Part shown: positions 945-63,512 of the stretch, piece after piece
Numbering within the stretch: position 1 is the stretch's first letter
Layout: each line of letters begins with the position of its first letter
From: Alphaproteobacteria bacterium
Lineage (GTDB): Bacteria > Pseudomonadota > Alphaproteobacteria > SP197
Length of the DNA: 64,000 nucleotides
Assembly (NCBI GenBank): GCA_964291265.2
Contig: OZ219747.1
Location: forward strand, 2,752,001 to 2,816,000
Direction of reading: 5' to 3'
Made by a program: the position numbers and the translations under genes
The notes under the pieces: model-generated
The model's input: only the letters and a program-made list of their open reading frames with translations
Databases searched by the model: none
What the model was told of the DNA's origin: nothing

Positions 945-1664
945 ATGACAGGTCGACTTATCCTGATCGGCACACCGATCGGCAATCTCGGTGACCTGTC
1001 GCCGCGCGCCCGGGACGCCCTGGGTTCGCTCGACGCCCTGGCCTGCGAGGATACCCGCCGCACGCGCACGATCCTTGAGCGTTTCGGAATCGCCCGTCCA
1101 CGCATCGTGTTGTCGTGCCACGAATACAACGAGGAACGTTCCGTCGACCGCATGGAGCGACTTCTCGACGAGGGGCTGACGGTCGGACTGGTAAGCGATG
1201 CCGGCATGCCGGGCATCAGCGATCCGGGCTATCTCGCGGTACGGATGGCAACGCGGCGCGGCTACCCGGTCGAGGTCATCCCCGGGCCCAGTGCCGTCAT
1301 CACGGCCCTGGCCGTATCAGGCCTTCCCATGTCGAGTTTTTCATTTCTCGGCTTTGCGCCCCGCAAGACAGCGAGGCGCCGCAGATTCCTGGAACCCCTA
1401 TCCGGGCTGGAGCCGACTCTCGTCCTCTTCGAATCGCCCCGGCGTCTGGGTGGCCTGCTTGCCGACGCCCTGGTGGTGCTCGGCGACCGCCGCGCCTCGG
1501 TGTCGATCGAACTCACCAAGATGTTCGAGGGAACCGAACGCGGCTGGCTCGCCGATCTCGCGGATCACTTCGCCGCGACGGTTCCGAAGGGGGAAGTCAC
1601 CGTGGTCATCGCCGGCAACAACGGGAAGTTCATCCGCACCGAGGGAAGTCAGGGACAGGGATAG
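945..1664 (+). CDS. rsmI: 16S rRNA (cytidine1402-2'-O)-methyltransferase
   Basis: GTPIGNLGDLS, ACEDTR, LVSDAGMPGISDPG, FESPRR, ELTKMFE motifs. Confidence 0.95.
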   Translation: MTGRLILIGTPIGNLGDLSPRARDALGSLDALACEDTRRTRTILERFGIARPRIVLSCHEYNEERSVDRMERLLDEGLTVGLVSDAGMPGISDPGYLAVRMATRRGYPVEVIPGPSAVITALAVSGLPMSSFSFLGFAPRKTARRRRFLEPLSGLEPTLVLFESPRRLGGLLADALVVLGDRRASVSIELTKMFEGTERGWLADLADHFAATVPKGEVTVVIAGNNGKFIRTEGSQGQG

Positions 1665-2692
1665 GTGTAGCGGCGGTGGGTTTCCTCGATGGCCTCGACC
1701 AGCTCTTCGGGCAGTTCGACATCGACGCTGGCAAGGTCGTTTGCGAGCTGTTCCTCGTTCATCGCTCCGATGATGGTCGAGGTCGTGAAGGGCTGCCGGT
1801 TGACCCAGGCCAGCGCCATGATGCCGGGATCGAGGTCGAAGCGGCGCGCCAGATCGACGTAGGCGCGGATCGCCGGTTCGGCGTTGGGCGGTCCGAGATA
1901 GCGCCGGTTCGAAGGATACATGGTCATGCGGGCGCCGGCCGGCCGGGCGCCATCGAGGTACTTGCCCGAGAGGGCCCCGGCCGCCATGGGTGCGTAGGCG
2001 AGAAGCCCGACCTGTTCATGCCGCGTGATCTCGGCGCACCCGGCCTCGAACGACCTGTTGAGCAGGCTGTAGGGATTCTGGTTCGACACGATGCGCGGCA
2101 GCCCCAGGGTCTCGGAGAGATGGAGGAAGCGCATGGTGCCCCAGGGCGTCTCGTTGGAGATGCCGATGAATCGCACCTTGCCAGCCTTCACGATACCGTC
2201 GAGGGCCTCCAGGGCCTCCTCGAGAGGTGTCCAGTCATCGGTCTCGCAATAGCGGTATCCCAGGCGCCCGAAGAAGGTCGTGGGTCGTTCCGGCCAGTGA
2301 AGCTGGTAGAGATCCACGTAGTCGGTCTGCAGGCGCCGGAGACTGGCATCGATGGCCCGCTCGACATGCCATCTCGTAAAGCGCGGCTTGCCATCGCGGA
2401 TGTAGGAGAAGTGATCGCCCGGCCCGGCAATCTTCGAGGCGAGGATCACCCGGTCGCGGTTGGTCCGGCCCTTCAGCCATGTGCCGATGACCTCCTCGCT
2501 TCTGCCGTAGTGCTCGGCGCTTGACGGCACCGCATACATCTCGGCGGTATCGATGAAATTCACGCCGTGTTCGAAGGCCTGGTCCATCTGCCGGTGACCC
2601 TCGGCCTCGGTGCTGTTGCTGCCCCAGTTCATGCTGCCGAGACACAGCAGTGAGACCTCGACCCCGGTACGTCCAAGTTGCCGATACTTCAT
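1649..2692 (-). CDS. Aldo/keto reductase, Tas-like
   Basis: MKYRQLGRTG...GVNFIDTAEMY...DYVDLYQLHWPER...IGISNETPWG; start set at ATG 2692. Confidence 0.9.
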   Translation of the reverse strand: MKYRQLGRTGVEVSLLCLGSMNWGSNSTEAEGHRQMDQAFEHGVNFIDTAEMYAVPSSAEHYGRSEEVIGTWLKGRTNRDRVILASKIAGPGDHFSYIRDGKPRFTRWHVERAIDASLRRLQTDYVDLYQLHWPERPTTFFGRLGYRYCETDDWTPLEEALEALDGIVKAGKVRFIGISNETPWGTMRFLHLSETLGLPRIVSNQNPYSLLNRSFEAGCAEITRHEQVGLLAYAPMAAGALSGKYLDGARPAGARMTMYPSNRRYLGPPNAEPAIRAYVDLARRFDLDPGIMALAWVNRQPFTTSTIIGAMNEEQLANDLASVDVELPEELVEAIEETHRRYTYPCP

Positions 2693-3319
2693 GCTGACCG
2701 GATTTCCTTCCCTGATGCGGGCGTCATCATGGACCGGGCTCCCCGCACCGTCCACCACCGCCGCGCAATCGGGAGGCCCACCAGGGGCACGGCATGGCAC
2801 ATCGATGTTGGCGAGGACGGGAATGTGCCACGCGTGATGTCGATGCCCCTCTCCGCCGAGGCCTCGTTCGAGACCTTCGACAAGGGACAAGGGGCGCATC
2901 GAGCGTGAGCCACCGTGCCGTGCTCGACATCTCCGGCGCTCACGTGACGACTGTGCCGCTCACCGCGGTTGCCGCCAGGCCGCCTGCCTGGAGCGTGAAC
3001 GCGAGGTCCGCAAGGCGCGAGAGCGCAGCCTCCGGTCAACCCGGTGCCTCGCCTCACCCGGTCTCGAACGCGCCGGACCGGGGGTGCTTCCGGCGCTCGC
3101 CGAACGACCATCGGGTCATGGAGAGTCGCCCTCGCTGCGGACGCGACGTTGCCCGCGACAGGAACCGCTGCAGGGTCCATGTCATCTGCCGCGCCACCTC
3201 TCCCGCCTGACGAACGCCGCCATCGCCATCGTTCGCTCACGGCGGATGCTTGAGCTCCGTGTCCGCGACAACCGGCATGACGCCGCCCGCACCCGGGACG
3301 CACGCGACGCGATCCTTGC

Positions 3320-3705
3320 CCGAAGTTCCAGCACCGATCAGACGTATCGTTATGAATGTATTGACGTTTGGGAGAATCTGGTGTGTCGCTACTGGGAACG
3401 CTAGAGGCGCACGCCGAGGTGGTTCAGGGCCTCTTTCTGGAGCGTCGTGGGCCGCATGGTGACCTGGAAGGGCCGCGGGGTTTCGACTTTCTTCATGGGC
3501 CAGGAGGAGAGATTGTTGGCGGGGGGCTCATGCGGTTGGGGACGATGTCTGTGTACATGGCAACGTATATGAGGGCGACAGCCGCCTGTGTCAACAGAGT
3601 GTTTCACCGTTACATGGGAACTTCTGCATGTCGCTTCTGTGCGATTTTATCAGTAAGATCAACTAGTTGATGTGGTTGTAGCGCTGGAATCGTCCGGAAC
3701 TTCGG
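3320..3705 (-). mobile_element. 386-bp MITE derived from an IS1634-family element (copy 1)
   Basis: 10-bp terminal inverted repeats CCGAAGTTCC/GGAACTTCGG and 6-bp TSD CCTTGC (3314-3319, 3706-3711). Internal remnants resemble a transposase N-terminus (MYxDIVPNR) and C-terminus (RPTTLQKEALNHLGVRL). Paralog at 17937-18322. Confidence 0.85.
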
Positions 3706-3948
3706 CCTTGCCTTGCCCGGAGGATGAATTGCCACTCCTCACCCCTGAGCGATGCGCCGGGAAGGCGCCGCCGGACGGCGCGACAAGGTGAGCCGTGCCC
3801 GAGCAGCCCTGATGCACCAGAAGTTGCCGCTGACAGCGGCACGCAGGGAACCCCGGGGTGCGTCTCAGGCATGCCCGATCCCTGCCAAATCAGCACTGAG
3901 GGCTCGACAACAAGATTCTGTTAGTGACGGCCGGAGCGCCGTCACTAA

Positions 3949-5610
3949 GGGTGTGAGTTTAGTATGGCAGTTATGCGCTTAAGTTATGGGCTTAGTTCAA
4001 TTGTTTCATCTCATGCGGCCAGCGCCGGGGTGTGATGTGGGTTGATGTTGTCGTTGGCTGGTGCGTCGTCTGCCCCGATCATGGCTGTCCACGCGCTCTC
4101 GAAGCGGCCGGATTTGATGAGGGCGCGGAAGGTGAGAACGGCTTGTCCGCCGACGATGCGCCAGCGCATGCCGGAGCGCTTCATGCGCTGTGTGACGAGG
4201 GTCTTGTTGGCTGCCTCGACAACTCCCGAGCCGATGGCGATCCCCTGTTGCTTCAGTGCGTGGTAGCGCATGCGGTGGCGATGCTTGCGGAAGAAGGCCA
4301 GTTCCCTGTCGATGTCGGCTCGGCCCGCCGGCTTGGCGGTGTCGCGAAGGTGGCGCAGCGCCCGGATCACCTTGTCGATGCCGCGGGGGTCGTGACGCAG
4401 GATCTCGCGGTACTTCTCGAACCAGTGGGGCGCCGCTGCATGGTCGGCCGCCACGCGCAGATGCTCGCAGGCATGCCAGAAGTCGATCACCTCGGTTTCG
4501 GGTTCAAGACCAGAGAGGAAGGTCCAGTTGTCGGCGGCGGCGTCGGCGATGGCGCTGATCCTGATCTCGGGACGCTTGCGCCTGATATGCGCGACCTCGC
4601 TTGCCAGCTGCGCCTTCAGCGTGCACTTGCCGCGCTCGGGCATGCGGCCGAGATAGACGGTCTTCAGGCGCTCACCGTCGGCGTCGTGGAAGGAGACTGT
4701 GCCACAGGCCGCCTCGCGCCAGCAGGCCTCGCTACGGCCGTCCTCGCCGGCCCGCAGCGCCACCATGACGCCGTCGAGCGAGACCGAGGCGGTGACCGCG
4801 TCCTGCGGAATGTCCTCGGCTTCCCGGATGCCATCCAGGGCCTGCGGGCCGAGACCTTCCCAACGCTCCTGCATGGTCAGGCTCAAGCGCTGCAAGGTGC
4901 TCACAGACGGCGTCATGGCGCCGAGCTTGCCGAAGAACGCTTCCGCTTCCCGCGCCGTGCAGTGGACCATCATCATCAGCCCAAGCTGAGCCGCCGGCCG
5001 TGTCAGGTAGTCGTCGACGAGGCCCAGGCTTTCGTCCACCGGCATCAACGACCGGCGGTGCCCGCCGGTACGGTAGCGCGCACGCTGAAAGGTCACCGGG
5101 CCGAGCGAGGTCATGATCGTCTTCGGCGTCGGCGCCACACGGAACCAGTTCTGCCCGTCCCGTTCGATCCGCGGCGCACCGTCGTCCCGGGCCTCGGCAC
5201 AGGCACCCAGGATCTCGCAACCAAGCGCGTGCACGCTCTCAAGCACCCGCCGCTCCGCTTCCTCGAAGGCCTCGGCAGAGCACTCTGAACCGAGCTGTCG
5301 ATGACACACCGCGGTCACTTGCGTGACCGCTTCGACAACCCGAGGCGGCAAGCCGAGAAGATCGATGGACGCGGAAGGCCGAAGCTGTGACACTGACATG
5401 GGAGCGCTCCTGATGTTGTGGTTTCAAGCTAGCATCATATCGCATCTTGCGGTGCGGAGCGTTCCCGCATCCACCGCCAAGCCCTGCTGTCGTGACAAAA
5501 TCCGGTCCTGAAACGGGCAATTGTCACGAAACCCCGTTTTCGCCGCTCCATCGCGACCGTACAACCGTGATAAATCAATGACTTGGCTTCTCCATACGAG
5601 AACTGCACCC
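3949..5610 (-). mobile_element. ISKra4/IS256-superfamily-like insertion sequence, 1662 bp
   Basis: Imperfect TIRs GGGTGTGAGTTTAGTATGG / CCATACGAGAACTGCACCC; 8-bp TSD GTCACTAA at 3941-3948 and 5611-5618. Confidence 0.85.
4011..5399 (-). CDS. ISKra4-like (UPF0236-type) DDE transposase
   Basis: SLDGVMV, IADAAADNW, DFWHACEHL, IGSGVVEAANK, RMKRSGMRW motifs; 462 aa intact. Confidence 0.85.
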   Translation of the reverse strand: MSVSQLRPSASIDLLGLPPRVVEAVTQVTAVCHRQLGSECSAEAFEEAERRVLESVHALGCEILGACAEARDDGAPRIERDGQNWFRVAPTPKTIMTSLGPVTFQRARYRTGGHRRSLMPVDESLGLVDDYLTRPAAQLGLMMMVHCTAREAEAFFGKLGAMTPSVSTLQRLSLTMQERWEGLGPQALDGIREAEDIPQDAVTASVSLDGVMVALRAGEDGRSEACWREAACGTVSFHDADGERLKTVYLGRMPERGKCTLKAQLASEVAHIRRKRPEIRISAIADAAADNWTFLSGLEPETEVIDFWHACEHLRVAADHAAAPHWFEKYREILRHDPRGIDKVIRALRHLRDTAKPAGRADIDRELAFFRKHRHRMRYHALKQQGIAIGSGVVEAANKTLVTQRMKRSGMRWRIVGGQAVLTFRALIKSGRFESAWTAMIGADDAPANDNINPHHTPALAA

Positions 5611-54024: not shown

Positions 54025-55278
54025 GTGCCTGTTGTCCACATTGTCGGCGCCGGTCTCGCGGGTCTGTCGGCCGCCGTCTGCCTGGCGGGCAGCGGGCAGC
54101 GGGTGGTGCTTCACGAGGCAGCGGCGCAGGCCGGGGGACGATGTCGCTCGCTTCTTGATTCCCGGCTCAAGTGCCGGATTGACAACGGCAATCATCTGTT
54201 GATGACCGGCAACCGTCACACGCTCCTGTACCTCGATGCCATCGGTGCGGCAGACCAGGTCACGGGACCTGTACCGGCAGCGTATCCCTTTGTCGACGTG
54301 CGCGACGCGCGGCAGTGGACCGTGCGTCCTGGAAGGGGACGGATACCATGGTGGATCCTCGATTCAGGACGCCGTGTTCCGCTCACCACGCCGGCACAGT
54401 ACTTGTCGGTGCTTTCTGTCATCACCGCCGGTGAAGGCCGGACGGTGGGAGAGTGCGTGAGGCGATCGGGAAGACTCCAGACGTGTTTCTGGGAACCTCT
54501 GACCGTGGCCGTTCTCAACACGCCGCTTGCGGAAGCTTCGGCGGGTCTGTTGCGCCAGGCGCTGAGAAGAACGCTCATGAAGGGAGAGTCCTGGTGTCGT
54601 CCTCTCGTTGCCCGACACTCGCTCTCGGCCACCTTCATCGATCCGGCTCTGGGATACCTCGCGTCGAAGGGAGTCGACATCAGGATGTCCAGCCGGCTCA
54701 GCGCCTTGCAGACGTCAGCCGGCAGGGTGGAAAGGCTGGACTTTGCCTCCACCAACATCACCCTTCTTGAAGGGGACAACGTGATCCTTGCCTTGCCGGC
54801 GTCGGTCGCCGGTGGTCTTGTGGCGGGCCTCGAGGTCCCGCGCAGGCATCAGGTGATCGTCAATGTCCACTTTCGCCTGCCCGGGCCGTCCGTGCTTCCC
54901 GGAGGACAGCCCTTTGTCGGACTGATCGGTGGCATGGCCCAATGGATCTTTGTACGGGACCAGGTTGTTTCCGTCACGGTCAGCGCGGCAAACGACATGA
55001 TTCACCGGACACTGCGCGATATCGCGATGGCGGCATGGCGTGATGTGGCTGCGGTCCTCGATTCCGATCCGAATTCACTGCCGCCCTGGCGGGTCATCAG
55101 GGAGCGCCGGGCGACGATTTCGCAGGACCCAGACACCATCGCCATGCGTCCCGCAACCCGCACCCCGCTGGCCAACATGCACCTGGCCGGTGACTGGACG
55201 GATACCGGGCTTCCGGCGACAATCGAGGGAGCCGTTCTTTCCGGCAAGCGCGCCGCCCGGGCCTGTGAGGCGGCATGA
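54025..55278 (+). CDS. hpnE: Hydroxysqualene dehydroxylase
   Basis: GAGLAGLSAA, GGRCRS, IDNGNHLL, AGDWTDTGLPATIEGAV.SG; follows hpnD. Confidence 0.85.
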   Translation: MPVVHIVGAGLAGLSAAVCLAGSGQRVVLHEAAAQAGGRCRSLLDSRLKCRIDNGNHLLMTGNRHTLLYLDAIGAADQVTGPVPAAYPFVDVRDARQWTVRPGRGRIPWWILDSGRRVPLTTPAQYLSVLSVITAGEGRTVGECVRRSGRLQTCFWEPLTVAVLNTPLAEASAGLLRQALRRTLMKGESWCRPLVARHSLSATFIDPALGYLASKGVDIRMSSRLSALQTSAGRVERLDFASTNITLLEGDNVILALPASVAGGLVAGLEVPRRHQVIVNVHFRLPGPSVLPGGQPFVGLIGGMAQWIFVRDQVVSVTVSAANDMIHRTLRDIAMAAWRDVAAVLDSDPNSLPPWRVIRERRATISQDPDTIAMRPATRTPLANMHLAGDWTDTGLPATIEGAVLSGKRAARACEAA

Positions 55279-56084
55279 CGTCAGGAGGCAAGCGCGGTTC
55301 TCCATTTGAGGTCTTCCGCGTCTTTCTCGTCCTGGGTCTCACCTCGTTCGGAGGGCCCGTGGCCCACCTCGGCTACTTTCGCGAGGCCTTTGTCGTGCGG
55401 CTTCAATGGATGAGCGACAGGGCATATGGCGATGTCGTCGCCCTGGGTCAGATCCTTCCCGGTCCCGCCTCGAGTCAGGTCGGCATGGCGATCGGGCTCA
55501 TGCGCGCCGGTTACGGCGGACTGTTGGCGGCATGGCTTGGATTCACGCTCCCTTCGGCGTTTCTTCTCACCGCCTTCGCCTTCGGGGCCGGCGAGCTCGA
55601 GGCGGCCCTGGGTTCCGGCTGGACAAACGGGTTGAAGGCCGCGGCGGTCGCTGTCGTCGCCCACGCTCTCGTCGGCATGGCGCGCAGTCTGGCGGCCGAC
55701 CGCAAGAGGGCCACGATCGCAGTCGCCGGCATGATTGGCGCCATGTTGATTCCCTTCGCCAGCGGGCAATTGATGGTCATCCTCGGAGGAGGGCTTGCCG
55801 GTCTTGTCTGGTTGCGCGATGAGGCGCCGCCGCACGGGGAAGAACTGATGGCGATTCCCGTCGGCCGCCCGGCTGCCATTCTGGCCCTGCTCGTCTTCTT
55901 CCTTCTCCTGGCCATTCTTCCGGTGGTGTCCGGTCTTGTCGTGGTGTCGGCGGCGATTTAGAACGGCGGGATATTGGCGGAGAACCGCTCTTTTGGGCGC
56001 TGATCGTGTGAGTGGGTGACCACGACAGGAGAACGTGCGGCATTGGACGAAGGTCCGCCCGGTCTTTGTTTTCTGCCTATTGTT

Positions 56085-57040
56085 GGATCCCATTGGTCTT
56101 GCATTGACGTTGACGATGTCGTTCCGGTCGGCGTTTTCTGGCGTTCGGCGTTTGTGGAACGTGATGTGGGAGGGGAGCTTCAGGCTTTTGCGCGTGGTTT
56201 CGTTCTGGCGTTCTCCGGCCTCGTCGTGGTTCGTCGGGCGGGACGATCTCGAGGCTGGAGAGCTGACGGTTTCTGTTGCGCTGGGCGAAGAGGCTGCGTG
56301 CGTTGCGGTTGCGGCGGCGCAGGGTGCGGCAGGCGTCGAGTGTTTTCGGGCGGATGCTGCGACCTGTGAGCCAGTCCGGCGGCGGATCGGGCGTTGCTGC
56401 GGCTCAGCGGCTGCGGCAGTCTCGTGATGTGGTGTCGTTTGGACGGCCCGGGGGTTTCCCGGGGAGGCTGAGAGGCGCGTCGGGGTGAGACGTTCTCATT
56501 CCTGGATGGTAACGCGTGACCGCGTTCAAGGGTCTTGCGAGATTACGTGTCCCTTCCGTAGCCGCGTGGCGGTTCGATGTCCTCGAGAGCCTCGATGTCG
56601 GCATCGGCGACGCTCTGCAGGCGTTCTCCGTAAGGCGTGTCACGGAGGGTTTCGGGGATGCTGTCGAGGCGGTCACGCCATTCGTCCTGCAGGGTGCGGC
56701 AGGCGTCGAGTGTTTTCGGGCGGATGCTGCGACCTGTAAGCCAGTCCGGCCAGCGGCTGCGGCAGTCTCGTGATGCGGTGTCGTTTGGACGGCCCGGGAG
56801 TTTCCCGGGGAGGCTGAGCGGCGCGTCGGGGTGAGACGTTCTCATTCCTGGATGGTAACGCGTGACCGCGTTCAAGGGTCTTGCGGGATCACGTATCCCT
56901 TCCGTAGCCGCGTGGCGGTTCGATGTCCTCGAGGGCCTCGATGTCGGCATCGGCGACGCTCTGCAGGCGTTCTCCGTAAGGCGTGTCACGGAGGCTTTCG
57001 GGGATGCTGTCGAGGTGGTCACGCCATTCGTCCTGCAGGG
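56085..57040. repeat. Degenerate partial copy of the Toprim gene plus ~346-bp tandem duplication
   Basis: ~56100-56435 resembles 57230-57360 joined to 57610-57815; blocks at 56433/56779 and 56678/57024 repeat with offset 346. Confidence 0.85.
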
Positions 57041-57179
57041 CGCGCAGTTCGGCCACGGCGTCGTTCCAGCGTTGCGGTCGCGAGCGCCGGTCACGGTGCT
57101 TTGGGGTGTGGACGGGAGGGATGCCGGCCTTGCGCCGTTCCCGGTATCGCCGCTGCTTTTCGGCGGGCGTGAGGGGCAT
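56889..57179 (-). CDS. IS21-associated small hypothetical protein
   Basis: AAGGAG RBS; MPLTPAEKQRRYR...RSRPQRW...EPPRGYGRD. Confidence 0.75.
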   Translation of the reverse strand: MPLTPAEKQRRYRERRKAGIPPVHTPKHRDRRSRPQRWNDAVAELRALQDEWRDHLDSIPESLRDTPYGERLQSVADADIEALEDIEPPRGYGRDT

Positions 57180-57205
57180 GAGTGGTCTCCTTGTGACGGA
57201 CGTGG

Positions 57206-58099
57206 TCATGATCTCGCTTGTGGTTCTTTGGTCCTGGCGTTGACGACGTCGTTCCAGTCGGCGTTTTCCGGCGGTCTGCGTCTGTGGAACGAGACGTGGG
57301 AGGGGAGCTTCATCTTTTTGCGCAGGGTTTCGGCCTGTCGCTCTCCGGCCTCGTCGTGGTCCTGGGCGAGGACGATGGTCCTGACGTTGGGCAGGCTGCT
57401 TGCGGCGAGGCTGATCTGTTCGTGCTGTCTTCGCGAGGGTGCCCCGGCGGTGGAGAGGAAGGCGTGGCTGGGGGGACATTGGTCGATCTGGGCCAGGCTG
57501 AGGGCGTCGACGGCGCTTTCGGTGATGACGAGGGCCTCGAGGTCCGCGGCGGTTCCGGCGCGGACGGCGAACAGGCTTCGGGTTCCACCGGTGGCGAAGC
57601 GTTTCGGTCCGTCGGGGGGACCGATCTCGAAGCCGGTGAGCTTTCGCTTCCTGTTGCGATGGGCGAAGAGGACGCGTCCGTTGTGGTCGCGGCGGACCAG
57701 GGGGCGGCAGGTGTCGAGGGTCTCCGGGAGGATGCCGCGCCCGGTGAGCCAGTCCGGGGCCGCATCGGGCGTTGCCGCGGCCCAGAGGCTGCGGAAGTCG
57801 CGTGGCGCGGTGTCGGGTGCTGTGAAGCGGGTGCAGATGTCGGCGAAGGCCAGTCCGCGGTTGAGCATGAAGTCGATGACGGTTCCGTTGTCTTCATCGT
57901 TCTGGGTGTTGAAGTAGACCCAGTGTCCGTTGTTGAGGCACTTCGTGACGAGCTTCGGCAGGCCGGGTGCGCACAGGACGGGGTTGGCGCGTGTCGAGGC
58001 CTGTTCGTCGCGGACGTATCCCCAGTCGGCGGCGATGCGTTCGAACGGCATGCGCTTGACGGCGTCGAAGTCGACGCGGCGGGGTTTATCGGGTTTCAC
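57206..58099 (-). CDS. Toprim-domain primase-like protein (DUF3991/Toprim type)
   Basis: GHWVYF...DNGTVIDF, ITESAVDALS, STAG, LAQDHDEAG (DxD), DWNDVV; GTG start overlaps the istB end. Confidence 0.8.
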   Translation of the reverse strand: MKPDKPRRVDFDAVKRMPFERIAADWGYVRDEQASTRANPVLCAPGLPKLVTKCLNNGHWVYFNTQNDEDNGTVIDFMLNRGLAFADICTRFTAPDTAPRDFRSLWAAATPDAAPDWLTGRGILPETLDTCRPLVRRDHNGRVLFAHRNRKRKLTGFEIGPPDGPKRFATGGTRSLFAVRAGTAADLEALVITESAVDALSLAQIDQCPPSHAFLSTAGAPSRRQHEQISLAASSLPNVRTIVLAQDHDEAGERQAETLRKKMKLPSHVSFHRRRPPENADWNDVVNARTKEPQARS

Positions 58100-58787
58100 G
58101 CCTGAGCCGCCAGGAGTCGCTGTCGATGGAGATGAGGGTTGCGTCGTGCATGAGCCGGTCGACGGTGCCGGCGATGCCGGAGGCGCTGGGGAAGACGCGG
58201 TCCCACTGGGCGAAGGCGAGGCTTGTCGTGACCATGGTCGAGCGGCGCTGATAGCGCCGCGAGACGATGGCGTAGAGGATGTCGGCATGGTGGCTTTCGA
58301 GGGTCACGTAGCCGATTTCGTCGAGGATGAGCAGGCGGGGCCTGGCGAGGATCGCGAGGCGGCGGCGCAGCTCGCTGCGCGAGACGGTCTCGGCGAGTGC
58401 CTCGAGCAGTTCCGGCGCCTTCTCGAAGCGGACGGTGTGGCCGTGCAGCAGGGCCTGGTGCGCCACGTTGGCGGCGATCATGGTCTTTCCGGTGCCCTGC
58501 CCGCCGACGAGCACGGCGTTGTCCGCACGGTCGACGAAGCCGAGGCCGAGGAGCGCTTCGACATGAGCCCGGCTGATGTCGCGCGGCCATGTCCAGTCGA
58601 AGTCCGCCAGGGGCTTGAAGGCGGGCAGCCGCGCCGCGGCGCGGCGGCGCTCGTGGCTGCGGGCCCTGCGGGCCTGTTCCTCGCCGCTGACCACCTCCTC
58701 GATCCATGCGGTCCCGGCGACCTCGTCCCAGCGTTCGACGAGCCCGTGGAGGCCGAGCGCCCGGGCACGCTCCCTGAGCTCGCTCAT
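58086..58787 (-). CDS. istB: IS21 helper ATPase
   Basis: KPLADFDW, GGQGTGKT, LLILDEIGY, RRYQRRS, VDRL; ATGA overlap with istA. Confidence 0.92.
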   Translation of the reverse strand: MSELRERARALGLHGLVERWDEVAGTAWIEEVVSGEEQARRARSHERRRAAARLPAFKPLADFDWTWPRDISRAHVEALLGLGFVDRADNAVLVGGQGTGKTMIAANVAHQALLHGHTVRFEKAPELLEALAETVSRSELRRRLAILARPRLLILDEIGYVTLESHHADILYAIVSRRYQRRSTMVTTSLAFAQWDRVFPSASGIAGTVDRLMHDATLISIDSDSWRLRRETR

Positions 58788-60277
58788 GTCTTGTTCCTGG
58801 CGCTGGCTTCGGGCCTGTCGTAGGCGTCGAGAGCGGTCCCCCGCGGCGTCGTGCCACGGCCGCCGCGGCCGTCGTCGGCGATGCTGAGGGGCGGCAGGCC
58901 CTGCTCCCGGCGGCGCTCCTCGATGATGACGCGCACGGTTTCGGGGTGGCACGAGCCGCGCTCCAGCGCCGTGGCGACAGCCCGGTCGAGAGCGTCGGCG
59001 CCGTGCGCGTTGAGAAGCGTCTCCAGCATCCGGGCGCAGGAGGCCACGTTGCGCCCGTTGGTCCCGGCGCGCGCCAGCATCTCCTCGGCCCGCGGCACGG
59101 TGCGCAGGACCCGGTCGCGGACGCTCATGGAGCGGGCCCGCCGCTTGCCCGCGGCGATCGCCCTGGCATGCTCCGGATCGGTGACGGCCTGCTTCCTGTT
59201 GTAGGAGCGTCGGTGGCGCGCGACCTCGTCGGCGCCGTCGAGGATGCGAACCTCGTCGCGGTCGGCGACCAGCGTCAGCAGGGCCTTGGAGAAGCTACCC
59301 GGAACGCTGTAGTCGTTGGTGTCGAAGCGGGCGTGGCAGGTCTTGTCGATGCGCACCGGGCGGACCTCGTGATGCGGGAAGGGATCGGCGGGAAGGACGA
59401 TCAGGTGCTCCCTCTCCCGGGCGAAGGCGTCCCGCACCAGGAGACTGTCGTCGTCCGGCCAGGGCCGCTCCGCGGCGGCGCCGAAGCACCACTCCCGAAC
59501 TGCGGCGTTGAGCTCGCCGAGCGGGACCGTGATGTCGCGCCCGGCGAAGAACCCGGTGCGCGCGAAGCGCACACGGCGTTCCACGCGGCCCTTCTCCTGC
59601 GGGCTCCTGGGCCAGGCGGCGCTCGGTTCGAAGGCATAGTGGGCCGCGAGGCCGAGCAGCATCGGATGATAGGTGACCGCCTTGCCGCGGCGCGTCACCA
59701 CGGCACTCTTCAGGTTGTCGTACAGAAGCCTCCGCGGCACACCCCCGAATGCCGCGAAAGCCTCGACATGGCCTTGCAGGAAGCTGGCCATCCGCGCGTC
59801 GTGGAACAGGCTCAGGACAGTCTGGCGCGAGTAGCTGAGGGTGACGAGAAGCCCCATGAGCCTGCGCTCCGCCCGGCCGATGCGGACCTTCCCGAACTCG
59901 GCCCAGTCAACCTGCGCCTGCTCGCCCGGAAGGAAGCTCAGCCGCAGCGACGGCTCGGGCCTCTTCACCGGCCTCAGCCCAAGGCGGCGCAGGTCGTGAC
60001 GGAAGTGATCCTCGCCGCCGCGGTAGCCCAGAGCCACGACCTGTCGCCAGAGCGTGCTGGCCGGAAGGTCCGGCGACGCCTCAAGACGCTCCCCGAGGAA
60101 GGCAACGAAGGGGTCGATGAGCTTGGCCCGCGGCCGCCGCTCCTGCCCCGACGCCTTGAGCGCCCGCGTCACCGTGCCGTGGTGCACGCCGAGATGCCGG
60201 GCAATCGTCCCCACAGCCCAGCCCTCGGCCCGCGACAGCCGCACGATCGTCGCCCGCGTGTCCTCGTCGATCGCCAT
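58784..60277 (-). CDS. istA: IS21 transposase
   Basis: N-terminal HTH, PGEQAQVDW, LSYSR, YDNLKSAV, KGRVER, NDYSVP. Confidence 0.93.
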   Translation of the reverse strand: MAIDEDTRATIVRLSRAEGWAVGTIARHLGVHHGTVTRALKASGQERRPRAKLIDPFVAFLGERLEASPDLPASTLWRQVVALGYRGGEDHFRHDLRRLGLRPVKRPEPSLRLSFLPGEQAQVDWAEFGKVRIGRAERRLMGLLVTLSYSRQTVLSLFHDARMASFLQGHVEAFAAFGGVPRRLLYDNLKSAVVTRRGKAVTYHPMLLGLAAHYAFEPSAAWPRSPQEKGRVERRVRFARTGFFAGRDITVPLGELNAAVREWCFGAAAERPWPDDDSLLVRDAFAREREHLIVLPADPFPHHEVRPVRIDKTCHARFDTNDYSVPGSFSKALLTLVADRDEVRILDGADEVARHRRSYNRKQAVTDPEHARAIAAGKRRARSMSVRDRVLRTVPRAEEMLARAGTNGRNVASCARMLETLLNAHGADALDRAVATALERGSCHPETVRVIIEERRREQGLPPLSIADDGRGGRGTTPRGTALDAYDRPEASARNKT

Positions 60278-60309
60278 GAACTCCCTCCCTTTGGTTCCTC
60301 AACGCCGCA

Positions 60310-60840
60310 TCACGGGTCCCTCAGCACCACATGCGTCACGACCCGTCCGCATCTGGCGCACCGAAGCGGCGATTCGCGCCGCTCTTGCGCCTTCACAACC
60401 GCAGGTAGGGAGGTCGGCAGCAGTCGGGAAGGGTGGTCCGTAACGATTTCTTCAGAACCGGCGTCTCCAGACACCGCCGGAACGTCGCCAAGCAGCACCA
60501 CAGCAGACGTCTGCGTGCCCATGATCTCGGCAACCATCGCCGCCCTGGCCTTCAACGCACGCGCCTCCTCCGCCTTGCGGAGCCGGTAACGCCGCTGGCG
60601 GTGACGGCCCGTCTCACGGCCCTTCAGCGTGCTCTGGTAGCGACGACGCGACGCGCGGCGCCGCTCGATCCGGGACCGCTCCCTGCACTCCTTGGAGCAA
60701 TACACATGTCCCCGGTCACACGACCGGCAGAGAACAACCTGCCGCTGACACCGCCTGCAGTTGAACAGTCGTCCTGTCGTGCACACCGTCCGTCTCGAGA
60801 GCGGGGGTGGACCCGGACGCAAAATGGCTCGACAATACAC
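60310..60840 (-). CDS. Cys-rich (Zn-binding) hypothetical protein upstream of istA
   Basis: CRRC...CRSCDRGHVYCSKEC and C-terminal CARCGR; start uncertain. Confidence 0.65.
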   Translation of the reverse strand: MYCRAILRPGPPPLSRRTVCTTGRLFNCRRCQRQVVLCRSCDRGHVYCSKECRERSRIERRRASRRRYQSTLKGRETGRHRQRRYRLRKAEEARALKARAAMVAEIMGTQTSAVVLLGDVPAVSGDAGSEEIVTDHPSRLLPTSLPAVVKAQERRESPLRCARCGRVVTHVVLRDP

Positions 60841-61829
60841 GGGAGTTCGGTCCCCCGTGACCGGCTCGTCCGGGTGCTGCGCCGGGGGGCGTCACAACTC
60901 CGCCCGGCATCGCATCGCTCTTTCTCTTGATGCCGATCTAGCATCCACCCGGGGCGGCGGCAAAGACGCCGCCCCGGGACCGGACAACGCGACCCGCCCA
61001 CAGGGAAGACAAACAATCCCGCGAGTGCCTCGGAACCGGAACCCTCCCGGCAACCGTCACCAAGACCGAAGCAGAGGTCGACGGAACCCGAACCGGACCA
61101 AAACGACAATAGGAAAAGACGGCGGCGCTCGGGGAGACAACCAGCCGAACACTCAAACCACGACAACAGGACGTGACAATAGGACCTGACAACAGGGAAG
61201 AAACACGACCCTGACAAAGCGCGGCAAATCGCCGAAATCCCGCCGTTCTATGCAGCCATCAACACGTGGAAGGTCCATGGCCTCTCCTCGATGCATTCTA
61301 TCGCGCGGGTTCGATGGTCTTCGGTGGCGGCCATGTTGTCTTGCCCCTTCTCGAGGCCGAGGTCGTGGACACCGGCATGGTCGACCGCGAGGTCTTTCTT
61401 GCCGGATACGGCGCGGCGCAGGCGGTTCCCGGGCCGTTGTTCACATTCGCTGCCTACCTGGGCGCCGTGATGGAGACGCCACCGTCTGCATGGGCGGCCT
61501 TGCTGGCGTTGTTGGCGATCTTCTTCCCTTCGGCCCTTCTCATTGTCGGCGGCCTGCACTTCCAGGGACACTTGCGCCTCGCGCCCACGTCCCGGCGCGC
61601 CCTTGCCGGCGCCAACGCCGCGGTCGTGGGACTGCTTGCCGCAGTGTTCCATGACCCCGTCCTCCCTGCCGGCCTCATCTCGCCCCTCGCGACCGCCATC
61701 GCCGCAGCCTCCTTCGTGGTGCTCGCGGCCTGGAACGCGCCCCCCTGGGCGGTCGTGCTGCTCGCTGGCATCGCCGGTTTCCTCGTCCTGTGACAAGGGA
61801 GCCCCAGCGCTCCCGAAGAGCCGATTAAC

Positions 61830-63512
61830 TCAGTACCAGGCATCCTCCATTGATGCCTTGCGCCGAGCCACGAAATCGTCGAGGGCCTCTGCGACCGCGT
61901 CATCGATCGATGGCGCCTCGAAGGACTCGATCATGGTCTTCCACACGGTGTTGGCCCGTTCCTCCATCCGCGGCGATCCGTCACCGGTCCAGGCTTCCCA
62001 GGGGCCGGGTTCCGGTATCGCGGGCATGAAGTTCGCAGTCTTATAACGGCGCAGTGTGTGGGCCGTCGCGAGGTGGTTCTGGCCGGGGGCCGCCTCGACA
62101 TAGGCGTCGGCTGCGAGATCCTCGGCTTCGGTGCGGAATCCCTTGAGCATGCGGAGCATCATGCCGCAGTGGTCGACATCCATGACGAACTTCTCGTAGG
62201 ACATGGTGAGTCCGGCCTCGAGCCATCCAGCGGCATGCCAGATCTGGTGGGCACCGGAGATCATCGTGGCCCACATGGCGCTGGCGGCGTCCTGCATCGC
62301 CTGTCCGTCAGGCGTGTTGGAAGCCGTGATCTGGCCACCGCCGGAACGCACGGGAACGCGAAGCCTGCGGCCGAGTTGTGCCAGGGCGAGCGTCACGAGG
62401 TTGGCCTCGGGCGTGCCGAAGGTCAGCGCTCCTGACTTGAGGTTCATGGTGGCGTGGAAACTGCCGAGAACGCAGGGGCAGCCGGGGCGGACAAGCTGGG
62501 CGAGGGCGATGCCCGCCATGCCTTCCGCCAGCGTCTGGGCGCAGATCGCCGCCGGGGTGAGCGGACCCATGGCGCCGCCGATGACCGACGGAGAGACCGC
62601 GACACACTGGTTGGCCTCCGCATAGACCCTGAGGGCTCCCGACATGGTGGCGTCGTAGACCAGCGGTGAATTGACATTGATGTTGGCCTGGATGACCGCG
62701 TTGTCCTCAAGCACCTGCGGGGAGAACGCGATCCGGGCCATGTCGATCGAATCACGCGCACGCTGCGGCGTCGTCACCGCTCCCATGAAGGGCTTGTCGG
62801 AGAGCGTGAGGTGAGCCAGCACCATGTCGAGATGGCGCTTGTTGACAGGGATGTCGACAGGTTCGCACACAGTGCCGCCCGAATGACCGAGCCACGGGGT
62901 CATGAACGTGAGACGGACGAAGTTCCTGAAGTCCTCGAGCGAGGCATAGCGCCGCCCGCGGTCAAGATCGGTCACGAAGGGTGAACCGTAGCCCGGCATC
63001 AGCACCACGTGATCGCCGCCCAGCGTGACGCTTCGTTGACCGAGCCACGGGGTCATGAACGTGAGACGGACGAAGTTCCTGAAGTCCTCGAGCGAGGCAT
63101 AGCGCCGCCCGCGGTCAAGATCGGTCACGAAGGGTGAACCGTAGCCCGGCATCAGCACCACGTGATCGCCGCCCAGCGTGACGCTTCGTTCGCGATTGCG
63201 AGCGTGAAGCACGAAGGTCTCCGGTGCCGACGCGCACAAGGCGCGCGCCTGGCCCGGCTCCATCCGGACACGCTGGTTCTCGACACGCGCTCCGGCCGAG
63301 CGGAAGAGCGCCAGGGCAACGTCATCCCCGCGAAAGTCAATGCCGACGGTGTCGAGGATCCAGTCCGCCTGCTTCTCGATGGCCTCGAGCATGTCCTCGC
63401 CAAGAGGTTCAAAGGCAGGCAGGCGCCGCCTCGTCAATGTCGTCGGTGCCGTGCCGGGGGAAGATCTTCCTCGGCGCCGCGGGGAACGCTGCCTGCCGCC
63501 TGCCGTCGTCAT
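61830..63512 (-). CDS. Trimethylamine methyltransferase (MttB) family protein, non-pyrrolysine, with internal 51-aa duplication
   Basis: SDKPFMG, NVNSPL..D, GAMGP, FGTPE, HAAGWLEAGL..SYEKF; no in-frame TAG. Confidence 0.9.
   Translation of the reverse strand: MTTAGGRQRSPRRRGRSSPGTAPTTLTRRRLPAFEPLGEDMLEAIEKQADWILDTVGIDFRGDDVALALFRSAGARVENQRVRMEPGQARALCASAPETFVLHARNRERSVTLGGDHVVLMPGYGSPFVTDLDRGRRYASLEDFRNFVRLTFMTPWLGQRSVTLGGDHVVLMPGYGSPFVTDLDRGRRYASLEDFRNFVRLTFMTPWLGHSGGTVCEPVDIPVNKRHLDMVLAHLTLSDKPFMGAVTTPQRARDSIDMARIAFSPQVLEDNAVIQANINVNSPLVYDATMSGALRVYAEANQCVAVSPSVIGGAMGPLTPAAICAQTLAEGMAGIALAQLVRPGCPCVLGSFHATMNLKSGALTFGTPEANLVTLALAQLGRRLRVPVRSGGGQITASNTPDGQAMQDAASAMWATMISGAHQIWHAAGWLEAGLTMSYEKFVMDVDHCGMMLRMLKGFRTEAEDLAADAYVEAAPGQNHLATAHTLRRYKTANFMPAIPEPGPWEAWTGDGSPRMEERANTVWKTMIESFEAPSIDDAVAEALDDFVARRKASMEDAWY
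62884..63189. repeat. 153-bp tandem duplication, identical by eye
   Basis: 62884-63036 matches 63037-63189. Confidence 0.95.

Follow-up and report, generated by a model that had tools for sequence, protein, structure and literature searches.

IS21 and IS5376 are insertion sequences (IS) made up of two genes, istA and istB, and IS21 has become a structural model for ATPase-regulated transposition, the replication step of which is only proposed. Excerpts of PMC10122671 report that IstA and IstB alone suffice to integrate pre-cut ends in vitro. IS21 is proposed to use a copy-out/paste-in route (excerpts of PMC11208146) and is named among the circle-forming families (excerpts of 10.1101/2023.06.07.543989); in copy-out/paste-in transposition, host replication makes a double-stranded circle out of a one-strand bridge (excerpts of PMC7780238). 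In the portions of the literature examined, priming of the second strand of copy-out elements is left to unnamed host machinery. Here we analyse a window of 64,000 nucleotides from an Alphaproteobacteria bacterium (lineage SP197; assembly GCA_964291265.2, contig OZ219747.1, positions 2,752,001 to 2,816,000), in which the chromate transporter gene chrA is split by an IS21 element that carries, coupled to istB, a DUF3991/Toprim gene whose product is predicted to fold like a primase.

The element is an IS21 member by its transposase, ATPase, ends and target duplication, and a variant by its gene content. It shares with IS21 and IS5376 the IstA triad D124, D187 and E233 (D124 and E233 as in IS5376, excerpts of PMC10122671), which is invariant in 21 aligned rows, an overlapping istB with Walker A and B motifs, TG...CA inverted repeats and duplications that are mostly of 5 bp (21 of 26). 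The istA product scores 223 bits against the NCBIfam IS21 transposase model NF033546 (cut-off 160), and the istB product scores 172 bits against Pfam IstB PF01695 (cut-off 24.1) and 192 bits against NF038214, just below the cut-off of 200. Whereas IS21 and IS5376 consist of istA and istB, this 5.3 kb element also has a Cys-rich open reading frame (ORF) preceding istA, and its istB is followed by a primase-fold gene and a small ORF, so that the minus strand reads Cys-rich ORF, istA, istB, DUF3991/Toprim gene and small ORF (Table 1). The DUF3991/Toprim gene starts with a GTG at 58099 and overlaps the last 14 nt of istB, an overlap already noted in a preliminary description of this DNA.

The conserved, inherited unit consists of the first four of these genes. 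With the Toprim protein as query, 52 loci came up, in genome assemblies that carry the label Alphaproteobacteria or that of Paracoccaceae and their kin; istB lies directly upstream of the Toprim gene in 42 of them, the remaining 10 being Toprim fragments. The order Cys-rich ORF, istA, istB, Toprim recurs in eight other assemblies (broken in two), and in the four of these that contain more than one copy, 4.1-4.6 kb are shared, bounded by TGT...ACA ends and target duplications. As a search that does not select on the Toprim gene, 41 related genomes were also queried with IstA, and five matched besides the genome under study (G000, with contigs C1 and C2). Nine loci were taken from this search; eight hold istB, and the Toprim gene stands right behind it in seven. 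The gene also follows istB in loci whose IstA shows no more than 47-49% identity. In a comparison of seven elements, each from another assembly, the ratio of nonsynonymous to synonymous substitution (dN/dS) and the synonymous distance (dS) are 0.39 and 0.48 for the Toprim gene, 0.36 and 0.46 for istA, and 0.32 and 0.40 for istB, and the Toprim gene is thus under purifying selection like istA. The preliminary description had suggested looking in other genomes for istAB followed by Toprim/DUF3991 inside IS21 ends, and had allowed that the gene could be a one-off passenger; its recurrence in 42 of 52 loci and in seven of the eight found from IstA, together with the purifying selection, shows that it is not. 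The five-gene transposon type proposed in the same place did not hold up. The small ORF follows the four-gene core in only one of the eight other assemblies, where it is 44% identical with a dS of 1.37 (one pair) against about 0.45 for the core genes, and this rarity and threefold synonymous distance rule out a five-gene type.

Modelling of the Toprim protein (predicted local distance difference test, pLDDT, of 92) predicts the RNA-polymerase domain and TOPRIM fold of primases. All 26 Foldseek matches listed at E <= 0.001, of 38 counted, are Twinkle, DnaG, T7 gp4 or T4 primosome proteins, and no OLD/Gabija-type nuclease or topoisomerase chain is among the fold matches listed. A single-sequence search of solved structures with the primase gave nothing; the best sequence-profile match of its family is T7 gp4 (E 2e-10). 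T7 gp4, Twinkle and DnaG share with the protein the RNA-polymerase domain and the TOPRIM fold with acidic metal-binding residues, whereas the window's primase has no helicase or helicase-binding domain. In T7 gp4 the acidic residues bind metal and basic residues form a nucleotide-binding ridge. The profile alignment pairs E194, D198, D247 and D249 with T7 E157, D161, D207 and D209 (numbering counted from the alignment), and D281, by its motif, presumably corresponds to the distal Asp of primases. All five acidic residues are kept in the window's protein, which on this ground looks catalytically intact. On the ridge, R121 matches T7 R84, while T7 K122 and R124 align with E158 and G160; K166/R167 may stand in for the missing basic residues.

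The DUF3991/Toprim family is large (4,109 clusters at E <= 1e-10) and is matched by 449 plasmid records. Its neighbours elsewhere include coupling proteins, trb genes, a type IA topoisomerase and Rep proteins, and a relaxase domain is found in 7 of 22 long members scanned. Members from conjugative plasmids and integrative and conjugative elements are of the same family and length and about 30-38% identical to the window's protein; they adjoin tra/trb/rep genes or are fused to relaxases, whereas here the gene lies inside a transposon and is coupled to istB. These comparisons point to a family belonging to conjugative plasmids, from which the element's gene was likely taken.

Capture by IS21 appears to have occurred more than once. 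When distant family members were used as queries and the best 80 of 452 metagenome loci were taken, istB lay directly upstream in 27, giving a second IS21 group of the form istA-istB-primase. Its IstA is about 25% and its IstB about 30% identical to those of the window, and inverted repeats enclose istA, istB and the primase gene in 8 of 8 tested. The clade of the window and the second clade stand apart in a primase tree (86 rows, quick search), with proteins of plasmids and integrative elements between them, and a single clade of IS21 primases is rejected by the approximately unbiased (AU) test (p-AU 0.027; 30 of the 86 rows, LG+G4, with the long stem of the window's clade as a caveat). The IstB tree (37 rows) places the primase-less elements as the sister group of the window's clade (support 99). 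The trees thus favour two separate captures. Within the second group, two unrelated IstB lineages (L113, L134, L139 and L141 versus the other 19 loci) share one primase clade, and the primase gene has therefore also moved between IS21 lineages.

A third setting is provided by another transposon of the same genome, a 5.16-kb element with four complete copies and two partial ones (at G000:C2:460796-465956, L053, and in five other places) and with 5-bp duplications at the four that were read. It encodes a Cys-rich ORF, an rve-type DDE transposase, an AAA_22 ATPase, an AAA_25 helicase and a DUF3991/Toprim primase (30% identical), and genome G301 has the same gene order. By tblastn it reaches 47% to Cupriavidus metallidurans CH34 and to a 26.8-kb Pseudomonas aeruginosa plasmid, and it is of the Tn6049 type (C. 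metallidurans CH34, pHS87a; excerpts of PMC4739549). This type has the same layout as the IS21 element, namely Cys-rich ORF, DDE transposase, AAA+ ATPase and accessory slot, and differs in that its transposase and ATPase are unrelated (rve/IS481-like and AAA_22) and its Cys-rich protein is of another family. Helicase-less Tn6049-type relatives in Cupriavidus and Paraburkholderia end in an ORF of about 70 aa, which in Cupriavidus is visibly of the same family as an ORF that follows istB in primase-less IS21 elements. A chimera (L209, G313:C2:254700-261000, positions 1498-5295), in which istA, istB and the first 100 primase codons run into a Tn6049-type ATPase and helicase, indicates that modules have been exchanged between the two kinds of transposon. 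Overall, the slot behind the transposition ATPase has been entered by at least two, and probably three, captures.

We put at about an even chance the proposal that the element-encoded primase is an optional primer-maker, likely speeding the DNA-copying step of replicative transposition. IstA would join one strand and a host polymerase would extend the free 3' end, displacing a single element strand. The primase, supplied by the same operon, would lay an RNA primer on the displaced strand or, at a cointegrate-type fork, on the lagging strand, and the second strand could then be made without waiting for host DnaG. A plasmid-type primase from the same operon would fit here because during the copying step element DNA becomes single-stranded and requires a primer, and the protein would descend from plasmid proteins that adjoin or are fused to relaxases. 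Since the host has dnaG and priA and primase-less relatives exist, the primase would be a booster and not an essential component, and for IS21 it is probably optional.

The presence of dnaG and priA in the host also weighs against the primer-maker proposal, as do several further observations. All six plasmid IS21 loci opened (IstA 44-47% identical) lack a primase, and so does one istB-holding locus found from IstA (L208). An IstB tree in which all primase carriers form one clade is not rejected (p-AU 0.10). No biochemical study of the DUF3991/Toprim family was found, and the two papers in which the term DUF3991 occurs use it only in tables of conjugation-linked genes. Unlike in T7 gp4, Twinkle and DnaG, there are no conserved zinc ligands: residues 1-95, predicted to form a folded domain, contain no Cys/His set, and the position of T7 K122 is Glu across the whole DUF3991/Toprim family. 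Of the 39 proteins in the near clade, 17 have Asn in place of D198, and all 39 have Gly/Ala/Ser at position 160, which is Lys/Arg in 145 of 148 family representatives; the window's clade also sits on a long stem in the primase tree. The Asn substitution, the loss of a basic residue at 160 and the long stem would fit a drift away from catalysis.

Such a drift is what would be expected of the likeliest alternative, itself rather unlikely in our estimate, in which the protein is a non-catalytic helper that binds to the host replisome or to DNA in single-stranded or forked form, steering the transpososome to replication forks or recruiting host restart proteins, priming having been lost or become incidental. 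The substitutions at 198 and 160 have arisen while the whole gene remained under purifying selection, and the long stem follows capture. Each of the six primase-less plasmid elements fills the slot behind istB with an ORF of 60-75 aa; in four of these six, and in both Tn6049-type loci examined with them (L149-L156 for the whole set), the ORF in this slot ends in an acidic-Pro-Phe-like tail, which we take to resemble the tail of the single-stranded DNA-binding protein SSB. A non-catalytic role is harder to reconcile with the near clade, where all 39 proteins retain E194, 36 retain D247 and D249, and 34 retain D281 (most of the exceptions being gaps), with the complete acidic set of the window's copy, or with the pairing of primase and helicase in the Tn6049-type element.

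A less probable reading is that the gene is stable cargo with no part in transposition, kept for helping plasmids, integrative elements or the host to copy single-stranded DNA. The family is one of plasmids and conjugation, IstA and IstB suffice in vitro (excerpts of PMC10122671), relatives without the primase exist, and the slot takes unrelated passengers such as the small ORF. The constant position of the gene, its overlap with istB, its joint inheritance with istAB over large distances and the repeated captures into one position behind a transposition ATPase all argue for a tie to transposition; in addition, 30 or more copies would give the host little gain each, yet 29 of 30 are open, a weak point as the copies are young. 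Very improbable is an excised circle that replicates as a small episome before reinsertion, with the primase and with IstB as a DnaC-like loader, since the likeness of IstB to DnaC/DnaI loaders, the high copy number and the helicase and primase of the Tn6049-type relative are set against an element with no helicase or Rep gene, the commonness of relatives with neither primase nor helicase, and the lack of any abutted element ends among 91 end matches in the genome.

A primase that would prime transposition from within the element has a partial parallel in the insertion sequence excision enhancer (IEE), likewise a primase acting on copy-out/paste-in elements (excerpts of 10.1101/2023.06.07.543989). 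IEE differs in being a PrimPol-helicase fusion of the archaeo-eukaryotic primase (AEP) type, in lying outside the element and in promoting its loss, whereas here a TOPRIM-fold protein is carried by the element itself. No published description of a primase inside IS21 was found in a search that left ISfinder, TnCentral and most subscription journals outside its reach. With a primase in the element's own operon, the priming step of transposition becomes testable, and the fact that two IS21 lineages and a Tn6049-type transposon have captured the same family of primases points to a selective advantage of a general kind. If the primer-maker reading is true, it would give the large DUF3991/Toprim family its first function. 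In a broader form, to which we lend slightly less than even credence, DDE transposons with an AAA+ helper would have repeatedly and independently filled the slot behind the ATPase, either with a plasmid primase, sometimes accompanied by a helicase, or with a small peptide recruiting the replication proteins of the host, and so form a class of self-priming IS elements of which the one described here would be a live, catalytically intact example.

The 5,320-bp element is real, mobile, active and present in many copies. Full-length copies number 30 in this genome (29 on C2 and one on C1); they are 98-100% identical and comprise 22 distinct sequences, and element DNA totals 197 kb or 4.1% of the genome. 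Target duplications flank 26 of the 30 copies (21 of 5 bp, four of 6 bp and one of 7 bp). The Cys-rich ORF, istA and istB are open in all 30, the Toprim gene in 29 and the small ORF in 27. The two chrA halves rejoin in frame over 1,197 nt, taken to end 3 nt past the natural stop, with no other stop, and the empty site (55939 joined to 61265) occurs in contigs from two of three public runs, all of one study. An assembly artefact is ruled out by the distinct duplications at 26 sites and the empty site in other runs. The preliminary description is borne out in these respects: the boundaries with TG...CA ends, the 5-bp duplication CGTGG, the restorable chrA frame, movement as a unit and, where it had called for a check, the presence of other copies in the genome.

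Target immunity, in contrast to IS21 and IS5376, looks weak or absent because five of the 30 full copies sit inside other copies (G000:C2:295923-308929, 4058043-4075257, 4144635-4152391 and 4237410-4248078); the binomial probability of this nesting by chance is 0.006 at a 4% target share and 0.09 at 8%, with selection ignored. The four-gamete test fails for 1,916 of 4,005 pairs of informative sites, and therefore the copies recombine. At G000:C2:4237410-4258495 two copies in the same direction lack duplications of their own and the outer flanks share GCACG, so that this region is a composite transposon of 21 kb or else the product of copies rearranging with each other. The most variable parts among the 30 copies (positions 60310-60840 of the window) are the Cys-rich ORF with 90 and the leader with 64 variable columns per kb, part of which comes from one divergent copy; the other genes have 6-19. 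In run X1 the long contigs of the element have a depth of about 1,940-2,060 and the flanks one of 53-65, a ratio near the number of IstA matches in the genome (38); it was given no weight, since depth does not equate to copy number and the source sample may have been X1. No circle joint is listed in the contigs of the three public runs, and as contigs drop rare forms this is no evidence against circles; nor is any RNA data set with the element listed, which is no evidence either.

Table 1. Features of the IS21 element and its insertion site, in positions of the window
Feature	Position	Strand	Basis or remark
IS21 element	55945..61264		TGT...ACA ends; 5,320 bp
chrA chromate transporter, 5' part, host gene split by insertion	55275..55944	+	Pfam Chromate_transp
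Target-site duplication CGTGG, first copy	55940..55944	none	Flank sequence and survey of genome copies
Terminal inverted repeat downstream of genes (TGT...)	55945..55993	+	Common to sister elements
Scrambled tail, no intact gene	55994..56888	-	Self-comparison of element
Small ORF, 96 aa, all-helical, family ends PPRG[YF]GRD	56889..57179	-	1,114 homologues; stop codon in 3/30 copies
DUF3991/Toprim gene, 297 aa, predicted T7-gp4/DnaG-type primase fold	57206..58099	-	Open in 29/30 copies
istB, 233-aa AAA+ ATPase, ATGA overlap with istA	58086..58787	-	PF01695
istA, 497-aa DDE transposase (D124, D187, E233)	58784..60277	-	NF033546
Cys-rich ORF, ~158 aa, start inferred from sisters	60310..60786	-	Open in 30/30 copies
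Non-coding leader, differs between copies	60787..61215	-	Copy comparison
Terminal inverted repeat upstream of genes (...ACA on +)	61216..61264	-	Common to sister elements
Target-site duplication CGTGG, second copy	61265..61269	none	Single copy at empty site in runs X2, X3
chrA, 3' part	61265..61793	+	Pfam Chromate_transp

The Cys-rich ORF likely has a zinc-binding N-terminus, and its sequence also contains an Arg-rich helix and a C-terminal CxxC. Its dN/dS, 0.60 for the whole ORF, falls to 0.38 in the first 70 columns. Although a tblastn search of the plasmid collection gave no plasmid match, local tblastn finds the ORF in six plasmid loci: all six of the primase-less IS21 elements with 44-47% identical IstA hold it, directly upstream of istA in five and displaced by another IS21 in one. 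Because it is present in these primase-less relatives, the Cys-rich ORF is a general, older accessory of this IS21 branch that predates the link with the primase. Its place upstream of istA in the same relatives rules out that it supplies the primase's missing zinc domain in trans.

The small ORF most likely starts at 57179, where AAGGAG lies upstream, which corrects the start given in the preliminary description. It has no Pfam or NCBIfam family, no plasmid match and no fold match at E <= 0.001, and in the Atlas it matches unnamed clusters only. Within the genome under study a 78% identical copy stands behind an IS110 transposase gene and a more distant relative behind a serine-recombinase-like gene (loci of the family in this genome include L054, G000:C2:3032500-3035700, and L055). 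In genome G275 an IS110 transposase lies upstream of members of the family in 10 of 14 loci (L173-L200; one or two frames per locus scanned). From these contexts the small ORF, which is a real gene, is best read as a swappable passenger that moves among unrelated mobile elements and was acquired separately.

Beyond the small ORF lies the scrambled tail, which the preliminary description of the element did not include. It contains partial copies of the primase gene (81-86% identical) and of the small ORF with its flank (97%), and is carried by all 30 copies, among which it has 52 indel columns; it is probably what remains of an older, related element that had inserted in this end. The element ends form an inverted repeat of 50 nt that is 70% complementary, and GC-rich repeated motifs, not delimited, were seen by eye in the first 50 nt of the element end. 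No match to a sigma-70 consensus promoter was found in the leader. Outside the element, an ORF at 61830-63512, which we take to encode a trimethylamine-methyltransferase-like protein, contains a tandem duplication of about 50 codons in which a segment beginning VTLGGDHVV occurs twice.

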